Of a stretch of 64,000 nt of DNA, positions 4,072 through 19,390 are shown piece by piece. Position numbers and translations under genes: made by a program. This DNA is from Escherichia phage vB_EcoM-RPN226: sequence record OL770073.2. One strand, written 5' to 3'. Each line of letters starts with the position of its first letter. Position 1 is the stretch's first letter. The notes beneath the pieces are model-generated. The model saw only the letters and a list, made by a program, of their open reading frames with translations, was not told the origin of the DNA and did not search any database.

Positions 4072-5250
4072 ATGAGCACAGTTTTTAATACAAATCCAGT
4101 TGATGTTTTAAAAGAACCTATGTTCTTCGGTTCAGGTCTTGGTATTGCGCGTTATGATATTCAACGCCATAAAGTTTTTGAAGATTTAACCGAAAAGCAA
4201 TTATCATTTTTCTGGCGTCCTGAAGAAGTAAACTTGATGATGGATGCTGCACAATTTAACAAGCTTCCTCAGTATCAGCAAGATATTTTTACTAATAACC
4301 TGAAATATCAATCACTTCTGGATAGTATCCAGGGTCGTGCACCGTCTGCTGTACTTATGTCATTAATTTCAGACCCAAGTCTTGATACATGGGTTGCTAC
4401 ATGGACTTTTAGTGAAACTATTCACAGTCGTTCATATACTCATATCATGCGAAATCTTTATACTGATCCATCGAAGGTATTTGATGAGATTGTACTAGAT
4501 GAAGCTATCATGAAACGTGCTGAATCTATCGGTCGCTATTATGATGATGTTCTGACTAAAACCCGTGAATGGGAAAATGCTAAAGAATTTACAGAACTAG
4601 CTAAAGAATCTCCTGATGCTGTTTTTCGTTTAAATCGAGCTATTAAACAAGAAGCCGAAGCTAAACGAGCACTAATGAAATCTCTTTACCTCTGCCTGCA
4701 CGTAATCAACGCATTGGAAGCTATTCGTTTTTATGTATCTTTCGCATGCACCTTTAACTTCCATAAGAACATGGAAATCATGGAAGGTAATGCCAAGATT
4801 ATGAAGTTCATTGCACGTGATGAGCAGCTTCACCTTAAAGGCACCCAATATATTATTCGTCAACTTCAACTTGGCACTGATGGTGATGAATGGGTTAAAA
4901 TCGCCCAAGAGTGTGAACAAGAAGCAGTTGATATTTTCATGGAAGTTAATCGCCAAGAAAAAGATTGGGCAGTTCATTTATTTAAAGATGGCGATGTTCC
5001 TGGATTAAATACAAATAGCATGTGGAGCTTTATTGATTACTTAACTGTATCTCGTATGAAACAGTGCGGTCTTCCATGCCCAATTACTGATGCTCCGGTT
5101 AAACATCCGTATCCTTGGATTCGTGAATATCTTAATTCTGATAATGTTCAATCCGCGCCACAAGAAGTAGAACTGTCATCTTACCTTGTAGCACAGATTG
5201 ATAATGATGTTGATGATAAAGTTATGATGAGTTTTAAAAAATATTTTTAA
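4072..5250 (+). CDS. nrdB: ribonucleotide reductase small subunit NrdB, uninterrupted
   Basis: 392-aa ORF with R2 ferritin-like motifs; no intron-like interruption. Confidence 0.92.
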   Translation: MSTVFNTNPVDVLKEPMFFGSGLGIARYDIQRHKVFEDLTEKQLSFFWRPEEVNLMMDAAQFNKLPQYQQDIFTNNLKYQSLLDSIQGRAPSAVLMSLISDPSLDTWVATWTFSETIHSRSYTHIMRNLYTDPSKVFDEIVLDEAIMKRAESIGRYYDDVLTKTREWENAKEFTELAKESPDAVFRLNRAIKQEAEAKRALMKSLYLCLHVINALEAIRFYVSFACTFNFHKNMEIMEGNAKIMKFIARDEQLHLKGTQYIIRQLQLGTDGDEWVKIAQECEQEAVDIFMEVNRQEKDWAVHLFKDGDVPGLNTNSMWSFIDYLTVSRMKQCGLPCPITDAPVKHPYPWIREYLNSDNVQSAPQEVELSSYLVAQIDNDVDDKVMMSFKKYF

Positions 5251-5277: not shown

Positions 5278-6865
<1,588 letters not shown>

Positions 6866-6868
6866 GCT

Positions 6869-6899
6869 GTTTACAAGTCCCTCGTGTTGTGTTATAGTA
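6869..6899 (+). promoter_or_regulatory. T4 early-type promoter (GTTTAC -35, TATAGT -10) upstream of alc
   Basis: GTTTACAAGTCCCTCGTGTTGTGTTATAGTA; same element repeated near 18967. Confidence 0.5.
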
Positions 6900-6926
6900 G
6901 ACTTACTGACATAACATGAGGACTTT

Positions 6927-13679: not shown

Positions 13680-14548
13680 AGCCAACTATTTTAACTGATA
13701 TTGATGGAGTATGTTTAAGCTGGCAATCAGGCCTTCCTTATTTTGCTCAGAAATATAATCTTCCGTTAGAACATATTTTAAAAATGATCCAAGATGAGAA
13801 ATTTATTTCTCCAGGTAAACTCTTTAATTGTGATGAAGAACTTGGCGTCAAGTTAATTGAAAAATATAATCGATCAGATTTTATTCGTTACTTGTCTCCA
13901 TATAAAGATGCTCTGTGTGTAATTAACAAATTAAAAGAAGATTATAATTTTGTAGCTGTTACAGCACTGGGTGATTCTATTGACGCTCTGTTGAATCGTC
14001 AATTTAATTTGAATGCTCTTTTTCCTGGTGCCTTTTCAGAAGTACTGATGTGTGGTCATGATTCTTCAAAAGAAGAGTTGTTCAAAAAGGCAAAAGAGAA
14101 ATATAACGTAATTTGTTATATTGACGATCTCGCTCACCACTGCGATCACGCGAGTGAAATATTAAATGTTCCAGTTTATTGGATGGCTCGAGGAGAGCGT
14201 GACAGTATTCCAAAAACTGCACAGCGAGTTTATACATGGAATGATGTAGAAAATAAGCTTTTTTCGCCGAAGGAAAATAAAGAAAGTTTTGATAGTGAAA
14301 AAGCTATAAAAGATGTAATTGAGAAGATGGTTAAAAACGATTCTTTTCCTTGGAACACTACCTGGAGAACACCTGGATTTAATCCGTATAATCCATATTA
14401 TACACATCCATATAATCCATATAATCCATATTATACACACCCGTATCATATGAATCCATTCCATACGTGGAGTTATACTAAGCCTGGTGATGCAGGGTAT
14501 TTTAATAGATTTACTAGTGGTGATAATATTTTCCAAGGAGCATTCTAA
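13676..14548 (+). CDS. HAD-like nucleotidase-domain protein with C-terminal Tyr/Pro/Asn-rich tandem repeats
   Basis: 290 aa; N-terminal ILTDIDGVCL (DxDGV HAD motif I); C-terminal NPYNPYYTHPY repeated twice. Confidence 0.6.
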   Translation: MKPTILTDIDGVCLSWQSGLPYFAQKYNLPLEHILKMIQDEKFISPGKLFNCDEELGVKLIEKYNRSDFIRYLSPYKDALCVINKLKEDYNFVAVTALGDSIDALLNRQFNLNALFPGAFSEVLMCGHDSSKEELFKKAKEKYNVICYIDDLAHHCDHASEILNVPVYWMARGERDSIPKTAQRVYTWNDVENKLFSPKENKESFDSEKAIKDVIEKMVKNDSFPWNTTWRTPGFNPYNPYYTHPYNPYNPYYTHPYHMNPFHTWSYTKPGDAGYFNRFTSGDNIFQGAF

Positions 14549-14814: not shown

Positions 14815-16275
14815 ATGATTCTTAAAATTCTGAATGAAATAGCATCTATTGGTTCAACTAAGCAGAAGCAAGCAATTCTTGAAAAGAATAAAGATAATGA
14901 ATTGCTTAAACGAGTATATCGTCTGACTTATTCTCGTGGGTTACAGTATTATATCAAGAAATGGCCTAAACCTGGTATTGCTACCCAGAGTTTTGGAATG
15001 TTGACTATTACCGATATGCTTGACTTCATTGAATTCACGTTAGCTACTCGGAAATTAACTGGCAATGCAGCAATTGAGGAATTAACTGGATATATCACCG
15101 ATGGTAAAAAGGATGATGTTGAAGTTTTGCGTCGAGTTATGATGCGAGACCTTGAATGCGGTGCTTCAGTATCTATTGCAAACAAAGTTTGGCCAGGTTT
15201 AATTCCTGAACAACCTCAAATGCTGGCAAGTTCTTATGATGAAAAAGGCATTAGTAAGAATATCAAGTTTCCAGCTTTTGCGCAGTTAAAAGCAGATGGA
15301 GCTCGGTGTTTTGCTGAAGTACGAGGCGATGAATTAGATGATGTTCGTCTTTTATCGCGAGCTGGTAATGAATATCTAGGATTAGATCTTCTTAAGGAAG
15401 AGTTAATCAAAATGACTGCTGAAGCCCGCCAGATTCATCCAGAAGGTGTGTTAATTGATGGTGAATTGGTATACCATGAGCAAGTTAAAAAGGAACCAGA
15501 AGGCCTAGATTTTCTTTTTGACACTCCTGAAATTAGCAAAGCTAAAGAATTCGCCGAAGTAGCGGAATCTCGTACTGCTTCTAATGGAATCGCCAATAAA
15601 TCCTTAAAAGGAACCATTTCCGAAAAAGAAGCCAAATGCATGAAGTTTCAGGTCTGGGATTATGTCCCGTTGGTAGAAATATACGGTCTTCCGGCGTTTC
15701 GTTTAAAATATGATGTACGTTTTTCTAAACTAGAACAAATGACATCAGGATATGATAAAGTAATTTTAATTGAAAACCAGGTAGTAAATAACCTAGATGA
15801 AGCTAAGGTAATTTATAAAAAGTATATTGACCAAGGTCTTGAAGGTATTATTCTCAAAAATACCGATGGATTGTGGGAAAATGCTCGTTCAAAAAATCTC
15901 TATAAATTTAAAGAAGTAATTGATGTTGATTTAAAAATTGTAGGAATTTATCCTCACCGTAAAGACCCTACTAAAGCAGGTGGATTTATTCTTGAATCAG
16001 AGTGCGGAAAAATTAAAGTAAATGCAGGTTCAGGCTTAAAAGATAAAGCCGGTGTAAAATCACATGAACTTGACCGTACTCGCATTATGGAAAACCAAAA
16101 TTATTATATTGGAAAAATTCTAGAGTGCGAATGCAATGGTTGGTTAAAATCTGATGGCCGCACTGATTACGTTAAATTATTTCTTCCAATTGCGATTCGT
16201 TTACGTGAAGATAAAACTAAAGCCAATACATTCGAGGATGTATTTGGTGATTTTCATGAGGTAACTGGTCTATGA
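14815..16275 (+). CDS. 30: ATP-dependent DNA ligase (gene 30)
   Basis: 486/487 aa; matches T4 DNA ligase including the KADGAR adenylation motif. Confidence 0.93.
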   Translation: MILKILNEIASIGSTKQKQAILEKNKDNELLKRVYRLTYSRGLQYYIKKWPKPGIATQSFGMLTITDMLDFIEFTLATRKLTGNAAIEELTGYITDGKKDDVEVLRRVMMRDLECGASVSIANKVWPGLIPEQPQMLASSYDEKGISKNIKFPAFAQLKADGARCFAEVRGDELDDVRLLSRAGNEYLGLDLLKEELIKMTAEARQIHPEGVLIDGELVYHEQVKKEPEGLDFLFDTPEISKAKEFAEVAESRTASNGIANKSLKGTISEKEAKCMKFQVWDYVPLVEIYGLPAFRLKYDVRFSKLEQMTSGYDKVILIENQVVNNLDEAKVIYKKYIDQGLEGIILKNTDGLWENARSKNLYKFKEVIDVDLKIVGIYPHRKDPTKAGGFILESECGKIKVNAGSGLKDKAGVKSHELDRTRIMENQNYYIGKILECECNGWLKSDGRTDYVKLFLPIAIRLREDKTKANTFEDVFGDFHEVTGL

Positions 16276-16460
16276 AAGCTTACTTAGAAACAATTGTCGT
16301 GGCTCAAAAAGAAGGTGGAGATGTTTCTACTTCTGTATCACAAATCGTTCTCGAATTTGTAGATGCATATGCTTATAATAAATTTACAGAAACATTTGAT
16401 GCCTATGAAAAAGGGCCAAAGTTTGAAATATACCGTACTCTCTTACCATTAGATTATTAA
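16272..16460 (+). CDS. hypothetical protein
   Basis: 62-aa ORF, stop/start coupled to gene 30. Confidence 0.45.
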   Translation: MKAYLETIVVAQKEGGDVSTSVSQIVLEFVDAYAYNKFTETFDAYEKGPKFEIYRTLLPLDY

Positions 16461-16512: not shown

Positions 16513-18606
16513 ATGGAACTTATTACAGAATTATTTGACGAAGATACTACTCTTCCGATTACAAACTTAAATCCAAAGAAGAAAATACCGCAAATTTTTT
16601 CAGTTCATGTTGATGACGCAATTGAACAACCAGGCTTTCGTTTATGTACCTATACATCTGGAGGTGATACTAATCGCGATTTAAAAATGGGCGATAAAAT
16701 GATGCATATTGTTCCTTTTACATTAACTGCTAAAGGTTCAATTGCTAAATTAAAAGGTCTCGGTCCAAGCCCAATTAATTATATCAATTCAGTTTTTACT
16801 GTTGCAATGCAGACGATGCGTCAGTATAAAATTGATGCCTGTATGCTCCGTATTCTTAAGTCTAAAACTGCTGGTCAAGCTCGACAAATTCAAGTTATTG
16901 CTGATAGACTTATCCGTAGTCGTTCAGGTGGCAGATACGTCCTTCTTAAGGAACTCTGGGATTATGATAAAAAGTATGCATATATTCTTATACATCGCAA
17001 AAATGTATCACTAGAAGACATTCCAGGAGTTCCGGAAATTAGTACCGAGCTCTTTACTAAAGTTGAATCGAAAGTCGGCGATGTTTATATCAATAAAGAT
17101 ACTGGAGCTCAAGTAACTAAAAATGAGGCAATTGCTGCATCTATTGCGCAAGAAAATGATAAACGTTCTGACCAAGCTGTAATCGTTAAAGTTAAAATTT
17201 CCCGTAGAGCAATTGCGCAAAGTCAGTCATTGGAATCTTCTAGATTTGAAAGCGAATTATTCCAGAAGTATGAATCTACCGCAGCTAATTTCAATAAACC
17301 TGCTACCGCTCCTTTAATTCCCGAAGCAGAAGAAATGAAGCTTGGAATTAATTCATTAGCTTCTAAAACTAAAGCAGCAAAAATTATTGCCGAAGGAACT
17401 GCAGATGAACTTCACTATGATTATAAATTCTTTTCAAAAAGTGAGGTTAATGAAGTTTCTGAAAAAATTAAAGATGTAATTCTTAATGCGATTAAAAATG
17501 AACCGACTACTTCAATAAAATGTTTAGAGAAATACGCAGCAGCTGTTAATCAATTATTTGAAGAATATAAAGATAATTGGCTTGATAAACATAATAAAAC
17601 CCGTAAAGGACAGCCAGATGAAGTCTGGGAAGAAATGACTAAAAATTCCTGGAACGCAGCAAAAACTAAATTCCTCAAAAGAATGATTTACAGCTTTTCT
17701 GGAATTGGTGCAGGTCCAATGATTGATATTACTATTGCCCGTGATGGTTCTAAATATACTCCATCACAAAAGCGTGGCATTAGAGAGTATTGTGGTTCAG
17801 GATATACTGACATCAATAATCTTCTTTTGGGTCGTTACAATCCAGAACGATATGATGTAATGAGTGAAAAAGAAATTGAATCTGCGATAAATAATTTAGA
17901 TTCAGCCTTTGAAAATGGTGACCGTATACCAGAAGGCATTACAGTTTATCGCGCTCAAAGCATGACTGCTCCTATATACGAAGCACTAGTTAAAAATAAA
18001 GTGTTCTATTTCAGAAATTTTGTATCTACTTCTTTAACTCCTATCATTTTTGGACGTTTTGGAATTACGCATGCTGGTATTGGTCTTTTAGAACCAGAAG
18101 CTCGTAATGAATTGACAGTTGATAAAAATGAAGAAGGAATAACTATTAATCCAAGCGAAATAAGAGCGTATAAAGAAAATCCTGAATACGTTAAAGTTCA
18201 AATAGGATGGGCAATTGATGGAGCTCATAAAGTTAATGTTGTATATCCAGGAAATCTCGGAATAGCAACAGAAGCTGAAGTTATTCTACCACGCGGATTG
18301 ATGGTCAAAGTTAATAAAATAACTGATGCTTCTAATAATGACGGAACAACATCTAATAATACAAAACTCATTCAAGCTGAAGTTATGACCACGGAAGAAC
18401 TCACCGAATCAGTCATTTATGACGGTGACCGTCTAATGGAAACCGGTGAAGTAGTTGCAATGACAGATGATATTGAAATAGAAGACAGAGTTGACTTTGC
18501 ATCATTTGTTTCATCAAATGCTAAACAAAAAGTAGAATCATCTCTTGGAATTATTGCGTCTTGCATAGATATTGCAAATATGCCTTACAAGTTCGTTCAA
18601 GGATAA
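16513..18606 (+). CDS. alt: Alt ADP-ribosyltransferase (packaged, injected with DNA)
   Basis: about 697 aa from MELITELFDE; matches T4 Alt as recalled. Confidence 0.85.
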   Translation: MELITELFDEDTTLPITNLNPKKKIPQIFSVHVDDAIEQPGFRLCTYTSGGDTNRDLKMGDKMMHIVPFTLTAKGSIAKLKGLGPSPINYINSVFTVAMQTMRQYKIDACMLRILKSKTAGQARQIQVIADRLIRSRSGGRYVLLKELWDYDKKYAYILIHRKNVSLEDIPGVPEISTELFTKVESKVGDVYINKDTGAQVTKNEAIAASIAQENDKRSDQAVIVKVKISRRAIAQSQSLESSRFESELFQKYESTAANFNKPATAPLIPEAEEMKLGINSLASKTKAAKIIAEGTADELHYDYKFFSKSEVNEVSEKIKDVILNAIKNEPTTSIKCLEKYAAAVNQLFEEYKDNWLDKHNKTRKGQPDEVWEEMTKNSWNAAKTKFLKRMIYSFSGIGAGPMIDITIARDGSKYTPSQKRGIREYCGSGYTDINNLLLGRYNPERYDVMSEKEIESAINNLDSAFENGDRIPEGITVYRAQSMTAPIYEALVKNKVFYFRNFVSTSLTPIIFGRFGITHAGIGLLEPEARNELTVDKNEEGITINPSEIRAYKENPEYVKVQIGWAIDGAHKVNVVYPGNLGIATEAEVILPRGLMVKVNKITDASNNDGTTSNNTKLIQAEVMTTEELTESVIYDGDRLMETGEVVAMTDDIEIEDRVDFASFVSSNAKQKVESSLGIIASCIDIANMPYKFVQG

Positions 18607-18609
18607 ATC

Positions 18610-18995
18610 ATGGAACTTATTACAGAATTATTTGACGGCGCTTCGGCGCCGGTTGTTAACTTAAATCCTAAGCATAAAATACCACAAATTTTTGCTATTC
18701 AAGCCGGCGAAGAAAGCGTGCTTCCTAGATTTAGATTTTGTACATACACCTCTGGCGGTGATACGAATAAAACGTTAAGCCGGGCGATAAAATGATGCAT
18801 ATCGTAATGATAGGTGTTAATGAGAAACTATCATTAGTTAAGCTTAAAAACTTGGGTGGAAATCCAATTGGTGTCATTAATGCTGTTTTTGATGCTGCTC
18901 TTCAAACAATGAAACAGTATAAAATCGACGCATGCCTATTACGCGTACTAAAAAGTTCAAAATGTAGTTTACAAGTCCCTCGTGTTGTGTTATAG
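18610..18995 (+). pseudogene. frameshifted, truncated paralog of the alt N-terminal region
   Basis: ORFs 18610-18795 and 18792-18995 together align with Alt residues 1 to about 130 but sit in different frames. Confidence 0.6.
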
Positions 18996-18997
18996 TA
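18967..18997 (+). promoter_or_regulatory. T4 early-type promoter (second copy of the 6869 element)
   Basis: GTTTACAAGTCCCTCGTGTTGTGTTATAGTA identical to 6869-6899. Confidence 0.5.
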
Positions 18998-19027
18998 GTC
19001 TTACTGACATAACACGAGGAACACAAA

Positions 19028-19318
19028 ATGAAATCTTCTTTACGCTTTTTAGGTCAAGAACTTGTAGTTGAAGGCGTTATTCCTGCTGATAATGCTTTTA
19101 ATGAAGCAGTTTATGATGAATTTATCAAAATTTTCGGAACAGATAAAAAGTTTGGAATTTTTCCTTCTGAAAATTTTTCAAAGCCAGAACAGACTGAAAG
19201 TATTTTTCAGGGTGTAGTAACAGGTAAATTTGAGTCAGAAGCTCCGGTAAAAATTGAAGTTTATATTGAAGACAGTTTAGTTGCTTCAGTTGCTGCTTTC
19301 ATTTCATTCCGTAAATAA
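19028..19318 (+). CDS. hypothetical protein
   Basis: 96-aa ORF after the early promoter, with GAGGAACA RBS. Confidence 0.5.
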   Translation: MKSSLRFLGQELVVEGVIPADNAFNEAVYDEFIKIFGTDKKFGIFPSENFSKPEQTESIFQGVVTGKFESEAPVKIEVYIEDSLVASVAAFISFRK

Positions 19319-19324
19319 AAATAT

Positions 19325-19342
19325 GGGGACCTTTCGGTCCCC
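19325..19342. terminator. bidirectional hairpin terminator GGGGACC-TTTC-GGTCCCC between convergent genes
   Basis: perfect 7-bp stem flanked by A/T runs on both sides. Confidence 0.6.
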
Positions 19343-19390
19343 ATTGTTATATTACTCCTAATATTTTACTTTGCGAATTGACAATTCCTG

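Follow-up and report, generated by a model that had tools for sequence, protein, structure and literature searches.

Alt.-1 and alt.-2 of a T4-like phage as a probable decaying remnant of a second full-length alt-like gene

The segment at positions 18610-18966 of the DNA stretch analysed here (64,000 nucleotides of Escherichia phage vB_EcoM-RPN226, OL770073.2; hereafter the window) is very probably a non-functional, decaying pseudogene, the stump left by the 5' end of a second, once full-length alt-like gene. Its ancestor was a complete gene for an alt-like ADP-ribosyltransferase located in tandem after alt, such as is still intact in most Tequatroviruses (T2, RB32, EcNP1 and others). In a first step, a 1699-bp deletion between 9-bp repeats removed codons 117 onward including the catalytic domain and joined what was left, in a different frame, to the final 11 nt of the gene and the promoter behind it. 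In the lineage of the window and T4, the later loss of 1 bp from an A5 run split the 128-codon stump into alt.-1 and alt.-2, and other deletion-bearing lineages gained a stop at codon 6 or further indels. The relation of alt.-1 and alt.-2 to alt is already known from the T4 GenBank records and from Nolan et al. 2006. The present analysis adds where exactly the deletion ends (1699 bp, with a 9-bp microhomology), in which order the events occurred, a survey of lesions and the contrast in selection between remnants and intact copies. Beyond correct annotation of the locus, this matters little.

Gene order and identity of the two ORFs

The window around alt belongs to a Tequatrovirus (T4-like). 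Positions 18560-19060 are matched by 502 phage records, with 99.2% identity to Escherichia phage vB_EcoM_112 and 97.8% to T4. Gene 30 (DNA ligase) is followed by alt.1, alt, the two small ORFs and alt.-3, after which come the converging baseplate genes 54 and 48. The same order is annotated in T4T, where the small ORFs bear the names alt.-1 and alt.-2. The original prediction had described two ORFs in two frames directly downstream of alt, and both are present in the ORF list. By their sequences, ORFs 18610-18795 and 18792-18995 correspond to T4 alt.-1 and alt.-2: they match phrog_23015 (over 1-61 of 61, E 3.8e-45) and phrog_15247 (over 1-67 of 67, E 5.4e-49), respectively. The alt.-2 ORF lies in frame +2 relative to alt.-1, and its ATG overlaps the alt.-1 stop codon (ATGA). 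The features of this part of the locus are:

16513-18606, plus strand: alt (copy 1; alt in T4T), intact, 697 aa, the packaged ADP-ribosyltransferase and upstream tandem paralog; PF03496 at residues 378-627, E 2.6e-37
18599-18603, plus strand: Shine-Dalgarno-like AAGGA, read from the sequence, 6 nt 5' of the alt.-1 ATG and adjoining the alt stop codon TAA (18604-18606)
18610-18795, plus strand: alt.-1 ORF, 61 aa; its first part is codons 1-53 of the ancestral second copy of alt, and the 8 codons that follow, up to TGA, are out of frame
18792-18995, plus strand: alt.-2 ORF, 67 aa, consisting of ancestral codons 62-116 in the original frame and 12 read-through codons into the old 3' end and the promoter

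The same arrangement of AAGGA and alt stop also precedes the full-length second copy in T2. Two observations concern the DNA upstream of alt. A 33-nt tandem direct repeat (85% identical; ...AATCCATATAATCCATATTAT) is located at 14369-14434, approximately 380 bp upstream of the ligase start, and a match to PF24647 'Phage blade protein' (E 1e-29) covers the whole of the 62-aa ORF at 16272-16460 (T4 alt.1), which separates ligase from alt.

Similarity to alt

BLASTP aligned Alt residues 1-57 with ORF1 (35/57 identical, 61%, E 2e-22) and residues 63-117 with ORF2 (34/55 identical, 62%, E 1e-21). Likewise, the Alt-like N-terminal region was recognized in the stump by phrog_802 at positions 2-59 (E 4.3e-18) and 64-120 (E 4.7e-19). 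The ORFs had been said to reproduce Alt residues 1 to about 130, including MELITELFD and CTYTSGGDTN. Both peptides occur in the ORFs and the homology is real, but it ends at residue 117. The N-terminus of alt.-1 is identical to that of Alt for 9 residues. Nucleotide alignment also revealed significant similarity to alt, with 72% identity over 200 nt (E 8e-27; 69-72%, roughly 70% overall). The longest exact matches comprise 28 nt (18610 versus 16513, the two start codons), in agreement with the predicted identity of the first 28 nt, and 21 nt (18782 versus 16689, GGGCGATAAAATGATGCATAT). A distance of 2097 bp separates the two copies. The final 12 codons of ORF2 (SKCSLQVPRVVL) are out of frame and run through the old 3' end into the promoter.

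As predicted, a catalytic C-terminal region is lacking. The restored 128-aa reading gave no Pfam match, and the PF03496 domain at Alt 378-627 has no counterpart in the stump. The ADP-ribosyltransferase motifs (R, S-T-S, E-x-E) do not occur in it, the region bearing them having been deleted. Across records the stump is labelled 'hypothetical protein', 'ADP-ribosyltransferase', 'RNA polymerase-ADP-ribosyltransferase Alt', 'putative pseudogene' (by the annotators of fPS-2) or not at all. Since there is no catalytic domain, the functional labels are misleading; 'hypothetical protein' and 'ADP-ribosyltransferase' on the stump ORFs of many phage records are annotation noise.

A full-length second copy in relatives and the deletion junction

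In T2 and RB32, a full-length second alt-like gene of 685 aa follows directly after alt and is itself followed by alt.-3; EcNP1 also carries a 685-aa orthologue of the stump. About 400 of the 502 matching records match only up to window position 18956 and are annotated with two Alt-like genes, and 93 cover the whole query. The second copy of T2 contains an ADP-ribosyltransferase domain at residues 416-620 (E 8.4e-20), and the motifs YRGQ, FVSTSL and SEAEV are retained in alignment with Alt. Identity between the second copy and Alt amounts to 43% overall, with 54-76% over the first ~250 residues and 13-44% beyond. The stump, by contrast, shows 95.5% DNA identity to the 5' end of the T2 second copy but only about 70% to alt, and is therefore the remnant of a separate paralog and not a duplicated piece of alt.

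The junction could be located by blastn. Window positions 18560-18956 correspond to T2 4501-4898 (95.5%, one extra base in T2) and 18948-19100 to T2 6589-6741. The sequence CTAAAAAGT occurs twice in T2 (L003:4890-4898 and 6589-6597), flanking the 1699 bp that are missing from the window, where it is present once. Thus, exactly 1699 bp were lost between two 9-bp direct repeats. Judged by the sequence, such endpoints are the signature of slippage or short-homology recombination, and one of these two processes (in the first case, slippage during replication) is the likely origin of the deletion. The marks left in the window are:

18948-18956, plus strand: deletion junction, the lone remaining copy of the 9-bp direct repeat CTAAAAAGT, where the blastn pieces overlap at query 389-397
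18957-18967, plus strand: end of the ancestral second-copy ORF, its last 11 nt (...F K M stop) with the ancestral TAG at 18965-18967, identified by comparison with the T2 3' end ...TCTAAAAAGTTCAAAATGTAG and by protein alignment
18769-18772, plus strand: site of the frameshift (1-bp deletion), an A4 run in place of the A5 of full-length copies and un-frameshifted remnants
18727, plus strand: G40R substitution (G to A) in the conserved PGFR motif, by alignment found in the window only among the 19 remnants compared

These data bear on an older interpretation, according to which only the 5' part of alt was duplicated and a stop and a new start were introduced later. It is stated in the available portion of the original T4 GenBank note (AF158101.6), that alt.-1 and alt.-2 'reflect an old duplication of the first part of gene alt, into which a stop codon and new ...', and it would fit that within the window only the first ~117 alt codons have a counterpart. 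The title of the original prediction, a duplicate of the alt N-terminus, has to be revised in the same way, as the stump is what a 1699-bp deletion has left of a diverged full-length paralog. Its similarity to the 5' end of the T2 second copy (95.5%) far exceeds that to alt (69-72%), its 3' boundary falls exactly on a pair of 9-bp repeats inside the full-length gene, and what follows the junction is the 3' end of that same gene. Moreover, the older note has already been superseded by the T4T annotation, an excerpt of which reads that alt.-1 and alt.-2 'reflect a deletion and further frame shift in the second copy of gene alt'. A partial duplication is thus exceedingly improbable and is ruled out by the mapping of the junction.

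Origin of the two reading frames

Where full-length copies have AATAAAAACG, the window has AATAAAACG. The two-frame arrangement is due to this loss of 1 bp, by which the A5 run became A4 at 18769-18772. Two other explanations of the layout, a sequencing error and a programmed ribosomal frameshift yielding a fused protein, were considered. On paper, a -1 slip on A_AAA_TGA (18787-18795) would join the frames, and relatives with a single 128-codon ORF do exist. On the other hand, what was actually lost is one base of a homopolymer, 20 nt before the overlap, and the overlap itself is the ancestral GAT AAA ATG ATG in another frame. A sequencing frameshift, which the original prediction had named as an outcome that would overturn it, is ruled out, since 9 of the 19 relatives examined, each sequenced independently and with the T4 reference records among them, have the same 1-bp deletion. 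Programmed frameshifting was rejected as well: the two-frame layout is not conserved, 10 of the 19 genomes having a single frame, and half of them (10/19) carry a stop at codon 6, upstream of the overlap. Taken together, there is next to no probability left for these two explanations. For the decayed second gene, an intact orthologue is found in T2, RB32 and EcNP1, and both the 1699-bp and the 1-bp deletion have been mapped.

Lesions and selection across deletion-bearing genomes

For the survey of lesions, 19 genomes with the identical deletion junction were chosen from ranked lists, not at random. They fall into four classes:

Intact 128-codon ORF, 4 of 19: N2, SYGD1, AV121, FL23
Codon-6 stop (GAA to TAA, E6*) only, 6 of 19: SG1, fPS-90, FL12, fPS-2, AV119, EC128
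A5 to A4 frameshift without codon-6 stop, 5 of 19: this window, T4T, SP1, Pu-Krd-SF4, F25
Both codon-6 stop and frameshift, 4 of 19: F1, 235Ecol030PP, PD112, slur14

The stump is thus disabled in 15 of the 19 genomes by E6*, the frameshift or both, that is, in at least two different ways. Additional lesions comprise a 9-bp deletion (F1), a 1-bp deletion in a T run (235Ecol030PP, PD112) and a 1-bp loss in the A run at the junction (F25). As all these lesions are layered on one shared junction, the deletion came first and was followed by repeated knock-out of the truncated ORF. It was also observed that all four combinations of codon-6 stop and A5 to A4 frameshift exist among the 19 genomes, which implies recombination among co-circulating phages or recurrent homopolymer slippage.

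The substitutions point in the same direction. Among the first 11 remnants, the count was 8 replacement and 12 silent changes plus 1 nonsense change, as against 2 replacement and 26 silent changes within the same 116 codons of three full-length copies (Fisher p = 0.005; 0.0008 without variants shared with full copies). Replacements have affected residues that are invariant in the full copies, namely G40R (in the window), G49D, G83S and P86Q. To judge by these sequence comparisons, the stump is under relaxed selection, although the ratio of 8-9 replacement to 6-12 silent changes is below the roughly 3:1 expected under full neutrality, the counts being small and some variants perhaps imported by recombination. 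Because of this relaxed selection the stump is regarded as a decaying pseudogene, and the earlier suggestion of a decaying paralog was borne out by the 15 disabled genomes and by a substitution pattern that is relaxed relative to the full copies. The DNA may persist since the deletion is recent and the stump roughly neutral, rather than through any function of the ORFs.

Expression and coding potential

The loss of coding capacity is not universal, which speaks against a pseudogene: N2, SYGD1, AV121 and FL23 have retained an uninterrupted ORF of 128 codons. In addition, alt.-1 possesses a good ribosome-binding site and an Alt-like N-terminus, and the 61-aa peptide is probably translated in the window phage. 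The N-terminus of Alt may act as a packaging signal. A rival possibility is that the locus encodes functional mini-proteins that are targeted to the prohead or compete with Alt for packaging, be it the 61-aa Alt.-1, the 67-aa Alt.-2 (made by termination-reinitiation at ATGA) or the 128-aa form (e.g. of N2). Besides the AAGGA site, the nine N-terminal residues shared with Alt and the overlap of the alt.-1 stop with the alt.-2 start, the intact ORF in 4/19 genomes and the fact that the N-terminal ~250 residues are the part best conserved between the paralogs (54-76% versus 13-44% further on) are in favor of this possibility, as are transcripts in T4. For this phage, RNA of alt.-1 and alt.-2 (class 'middle') was detected but not the proteins (PMC9697503 Table S2). 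Since small proteins are easily missed by proteomics, this absence is weak evidence. An example of a peptide unique to Alt.-1 is FCTYTSGGDTNK.

However, the codon-6 stop in 10/19 genomes abolishes translation of Alt.-1 and of any Alt.-2 coupled to it, the frameshift is present in 9/19 in addition to further indels, and G40R, G49D, G83S and P86Q replace residues that are constant in full copies. Together with the missing protein in T4, this makes functional mini-proteins very unlikely. The more specific assumption that a truncated N-terminus is made (61-aa Alt.-1 in the window phage and T4, 128 aa in N2, SYGD1, AV121 and FL23) and, by way of its Alt-like region, is taken into the prohead or rivals Alt in packaging is regarded as very unlikely. 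If it were true, the locus would be a mini-gene in some lineages and not pure debris. The prediction of a short protein retaining only the N-terminal packaging signal is thus disfavored by the 15 disabled genomes out of 19, by the relaxed substitutions and by the absence of Alt.-1 and Alt.-2 from the T4 proteome. Under the preferred reading as a pseudogene, the stump would be transcribed passively together with alt, and its working parts would probably be confined to the inherited intergenic cis elements, i.e. the early promoter and the hairpin serving alt.-3.

Recombination between the tandem copies

It had also been proposed that the two copies could mediate recombination across about 2.1 kb. 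Their distance of 2097 bp agrees with this figure, and indirect support comes from Yersinia phage PST (NC_027404.1, L008:2460-4520), which was observed to possess a single chimeric alt. Up to residue ~100 the PST protein is identical to copy 1 (Alt), and from there on to copy 2 of the T2 type, with the crossover in a shared 9-nt sequence (CAAACAATG). PST alt is thus a natural deletion of ~2.1 kb via recombination of tandem paralogs, an event that does take place in nature. Recombination between alt and the remnant, however, would destroy alt. Its product was sought with a composite of the 210 nt preceding alt and 210 nt of alt.-3, both halves of which had to fall in one place, but the upstream region of alt was found within ~700 bp of alt.-3 in none of 500 records (0/500). 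The 28-nt identity is therefore a theoretical substrate without an observed product. Together with the PST chimera, the locus is a tidy example of short-homology deletions pruning the tandem paralogs of T-even phages.

The promoter/hairpin cassette and alt.-3

Downstream of the junction, the following features were identified:

18967-18996, plus strand: T4-type early promoter, GTTTAC (-35)-N18-TG-extended TATAGT (-10), the best promoter-like site on the plus strand of the region (10/12 with TG)
18967-19020, plus strand: 54-nt promoter and stem-loop cassette, a repeat of 6869-6922 (between rnlA and alc), 52/54 identical (96%), blastn E 2.6e-20
18975-19022, plus strand: hairpin over the promoter -10, its 3' arm holding the alt.-3 Shine-Dalgarno sequence GAGGA; RNA fold -24.8 kcal/mol, z -4.9
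19028-19318, plus strand: alt.-3, intact, 96 aa, DUF5498 (PF17602, E 1.4e-64), served by the promoter
19323-19344, both strands: terminator between alt.-3 and the converging gene 54, a GC-rich hairpin with a 9-bp stem and T-runs on both strands; annotated terminators in phage SP1

The statement that the locus ends in a repeated early-promoter element was accurate. The two cassette copies, one preceding alc and the other alt.-3, have the same orientation and lie at a distance of 12,098 bp. The promoter and its twin at 6869 were found by a regular expression with variable spacing, as the fixed pattern GTTTAC-N16-TGNTATAAT (2 mismatches), whose spacing is off by one, did not pick up the site. At the -10 position, T2 reads TATAAT. 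In both copies, the hairpin was seen to pair the downstream Shine-Dalgarno sequence. RNA starting at 19003, as predicted for transcripts from the promoter, does not form such a structure according to the RNA fold, the 5' arm being missing. It is conceivable from these models that at both cassettes read-through RNA may be poorly translated and promoter-proximal RNA is open. For alt.-3, translation would then depend chiefly on transcripts from its own promoter, read-through RNA being a poor template. In T4, early RNA and early protein of alt.-3 have been detected (PMC9697503 Table S2). The escape mutations with which T4 blocks the CmdTAC defence system lengthen the C-terminus of Alt.-3 (PMC11618068). 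The hairpin at 19323-19344 is, by its sequence, likely a bidirectional intrinsic terminator.

Comparison with known systems

The closest counterparts are alt.-1 and alt.-2 of T4 (AF158101, HM137666; UniProt P39495, P39494; phrog_23015, phrog_15247), which occupy the same interval between alt and alt.-3, have the same lengths (61 and 67 aa) and share the 1-bp frameshift and the deletion junction at 97.8% DNA identity. There are few point differences; G40R (18727) and T96A occur in the window and are absent from the other 18 remnants examined. The second Alt-like ADP-ribosyltransferase of the T2 type (T2 XYW65519.1; RB32 'alt.-2' ABI95018.1, 685 aa) represents the orthologous locus, with 95.5% DNA identity over the first 116 codons and with the start context, the downstream promoter and alt.-3 in common. 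Compared to it, the window is deprived of 1699 bp (codons 117 onward, the whole catalytic domain) and of one A of the A5 run. A further comparison is with T4 Alt itself (packaged NAD+:arginine ADP-ribosyltransferase; PF03496; phrog_802). Its N-terminal region, residues 1-117, is paralogous to the stump with 61-62% amino acid identity, but the stump lacks the catalytic domain, is spread over two frames and reaches only ~72% identity at the DNA level.

Nolan et al. 2006 (PMC1524935) list alt.-1 and alt.-2 of T4 among the paralogous duplications of alt. RB49ORF183c, 44RRORF188c and 44RRORF187c, tandem alt paralogs of partial or full length in distant relatives, are likened to them by this listing. 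Finally, the cassette resembles the PeSL cassettes of T4-like phages (Arbiol 2010, PMC2839356; Comeau 2014, PMC4122927), which likewise combine an early promoter with a strong stem-loop, are repeated in the genome and edge a segment variable by indels. The endpoints of the 1699-bp deletion are the 9-bp CTAAAAAGT inside the gene and not a PeSL-like cassette. The promoter consensus of the PeSLs of T4 and PST is TTTACW-N17-TAYWAT (Comeau 2014, PMC4122927), from which the window promoter (TTTACA-17-TATAGT with TG) deviates by one mismatch. A possible difference between the window and the PeSLs is that its stem-loop encloses both the -10 element and the downstream ribosome-binding site.
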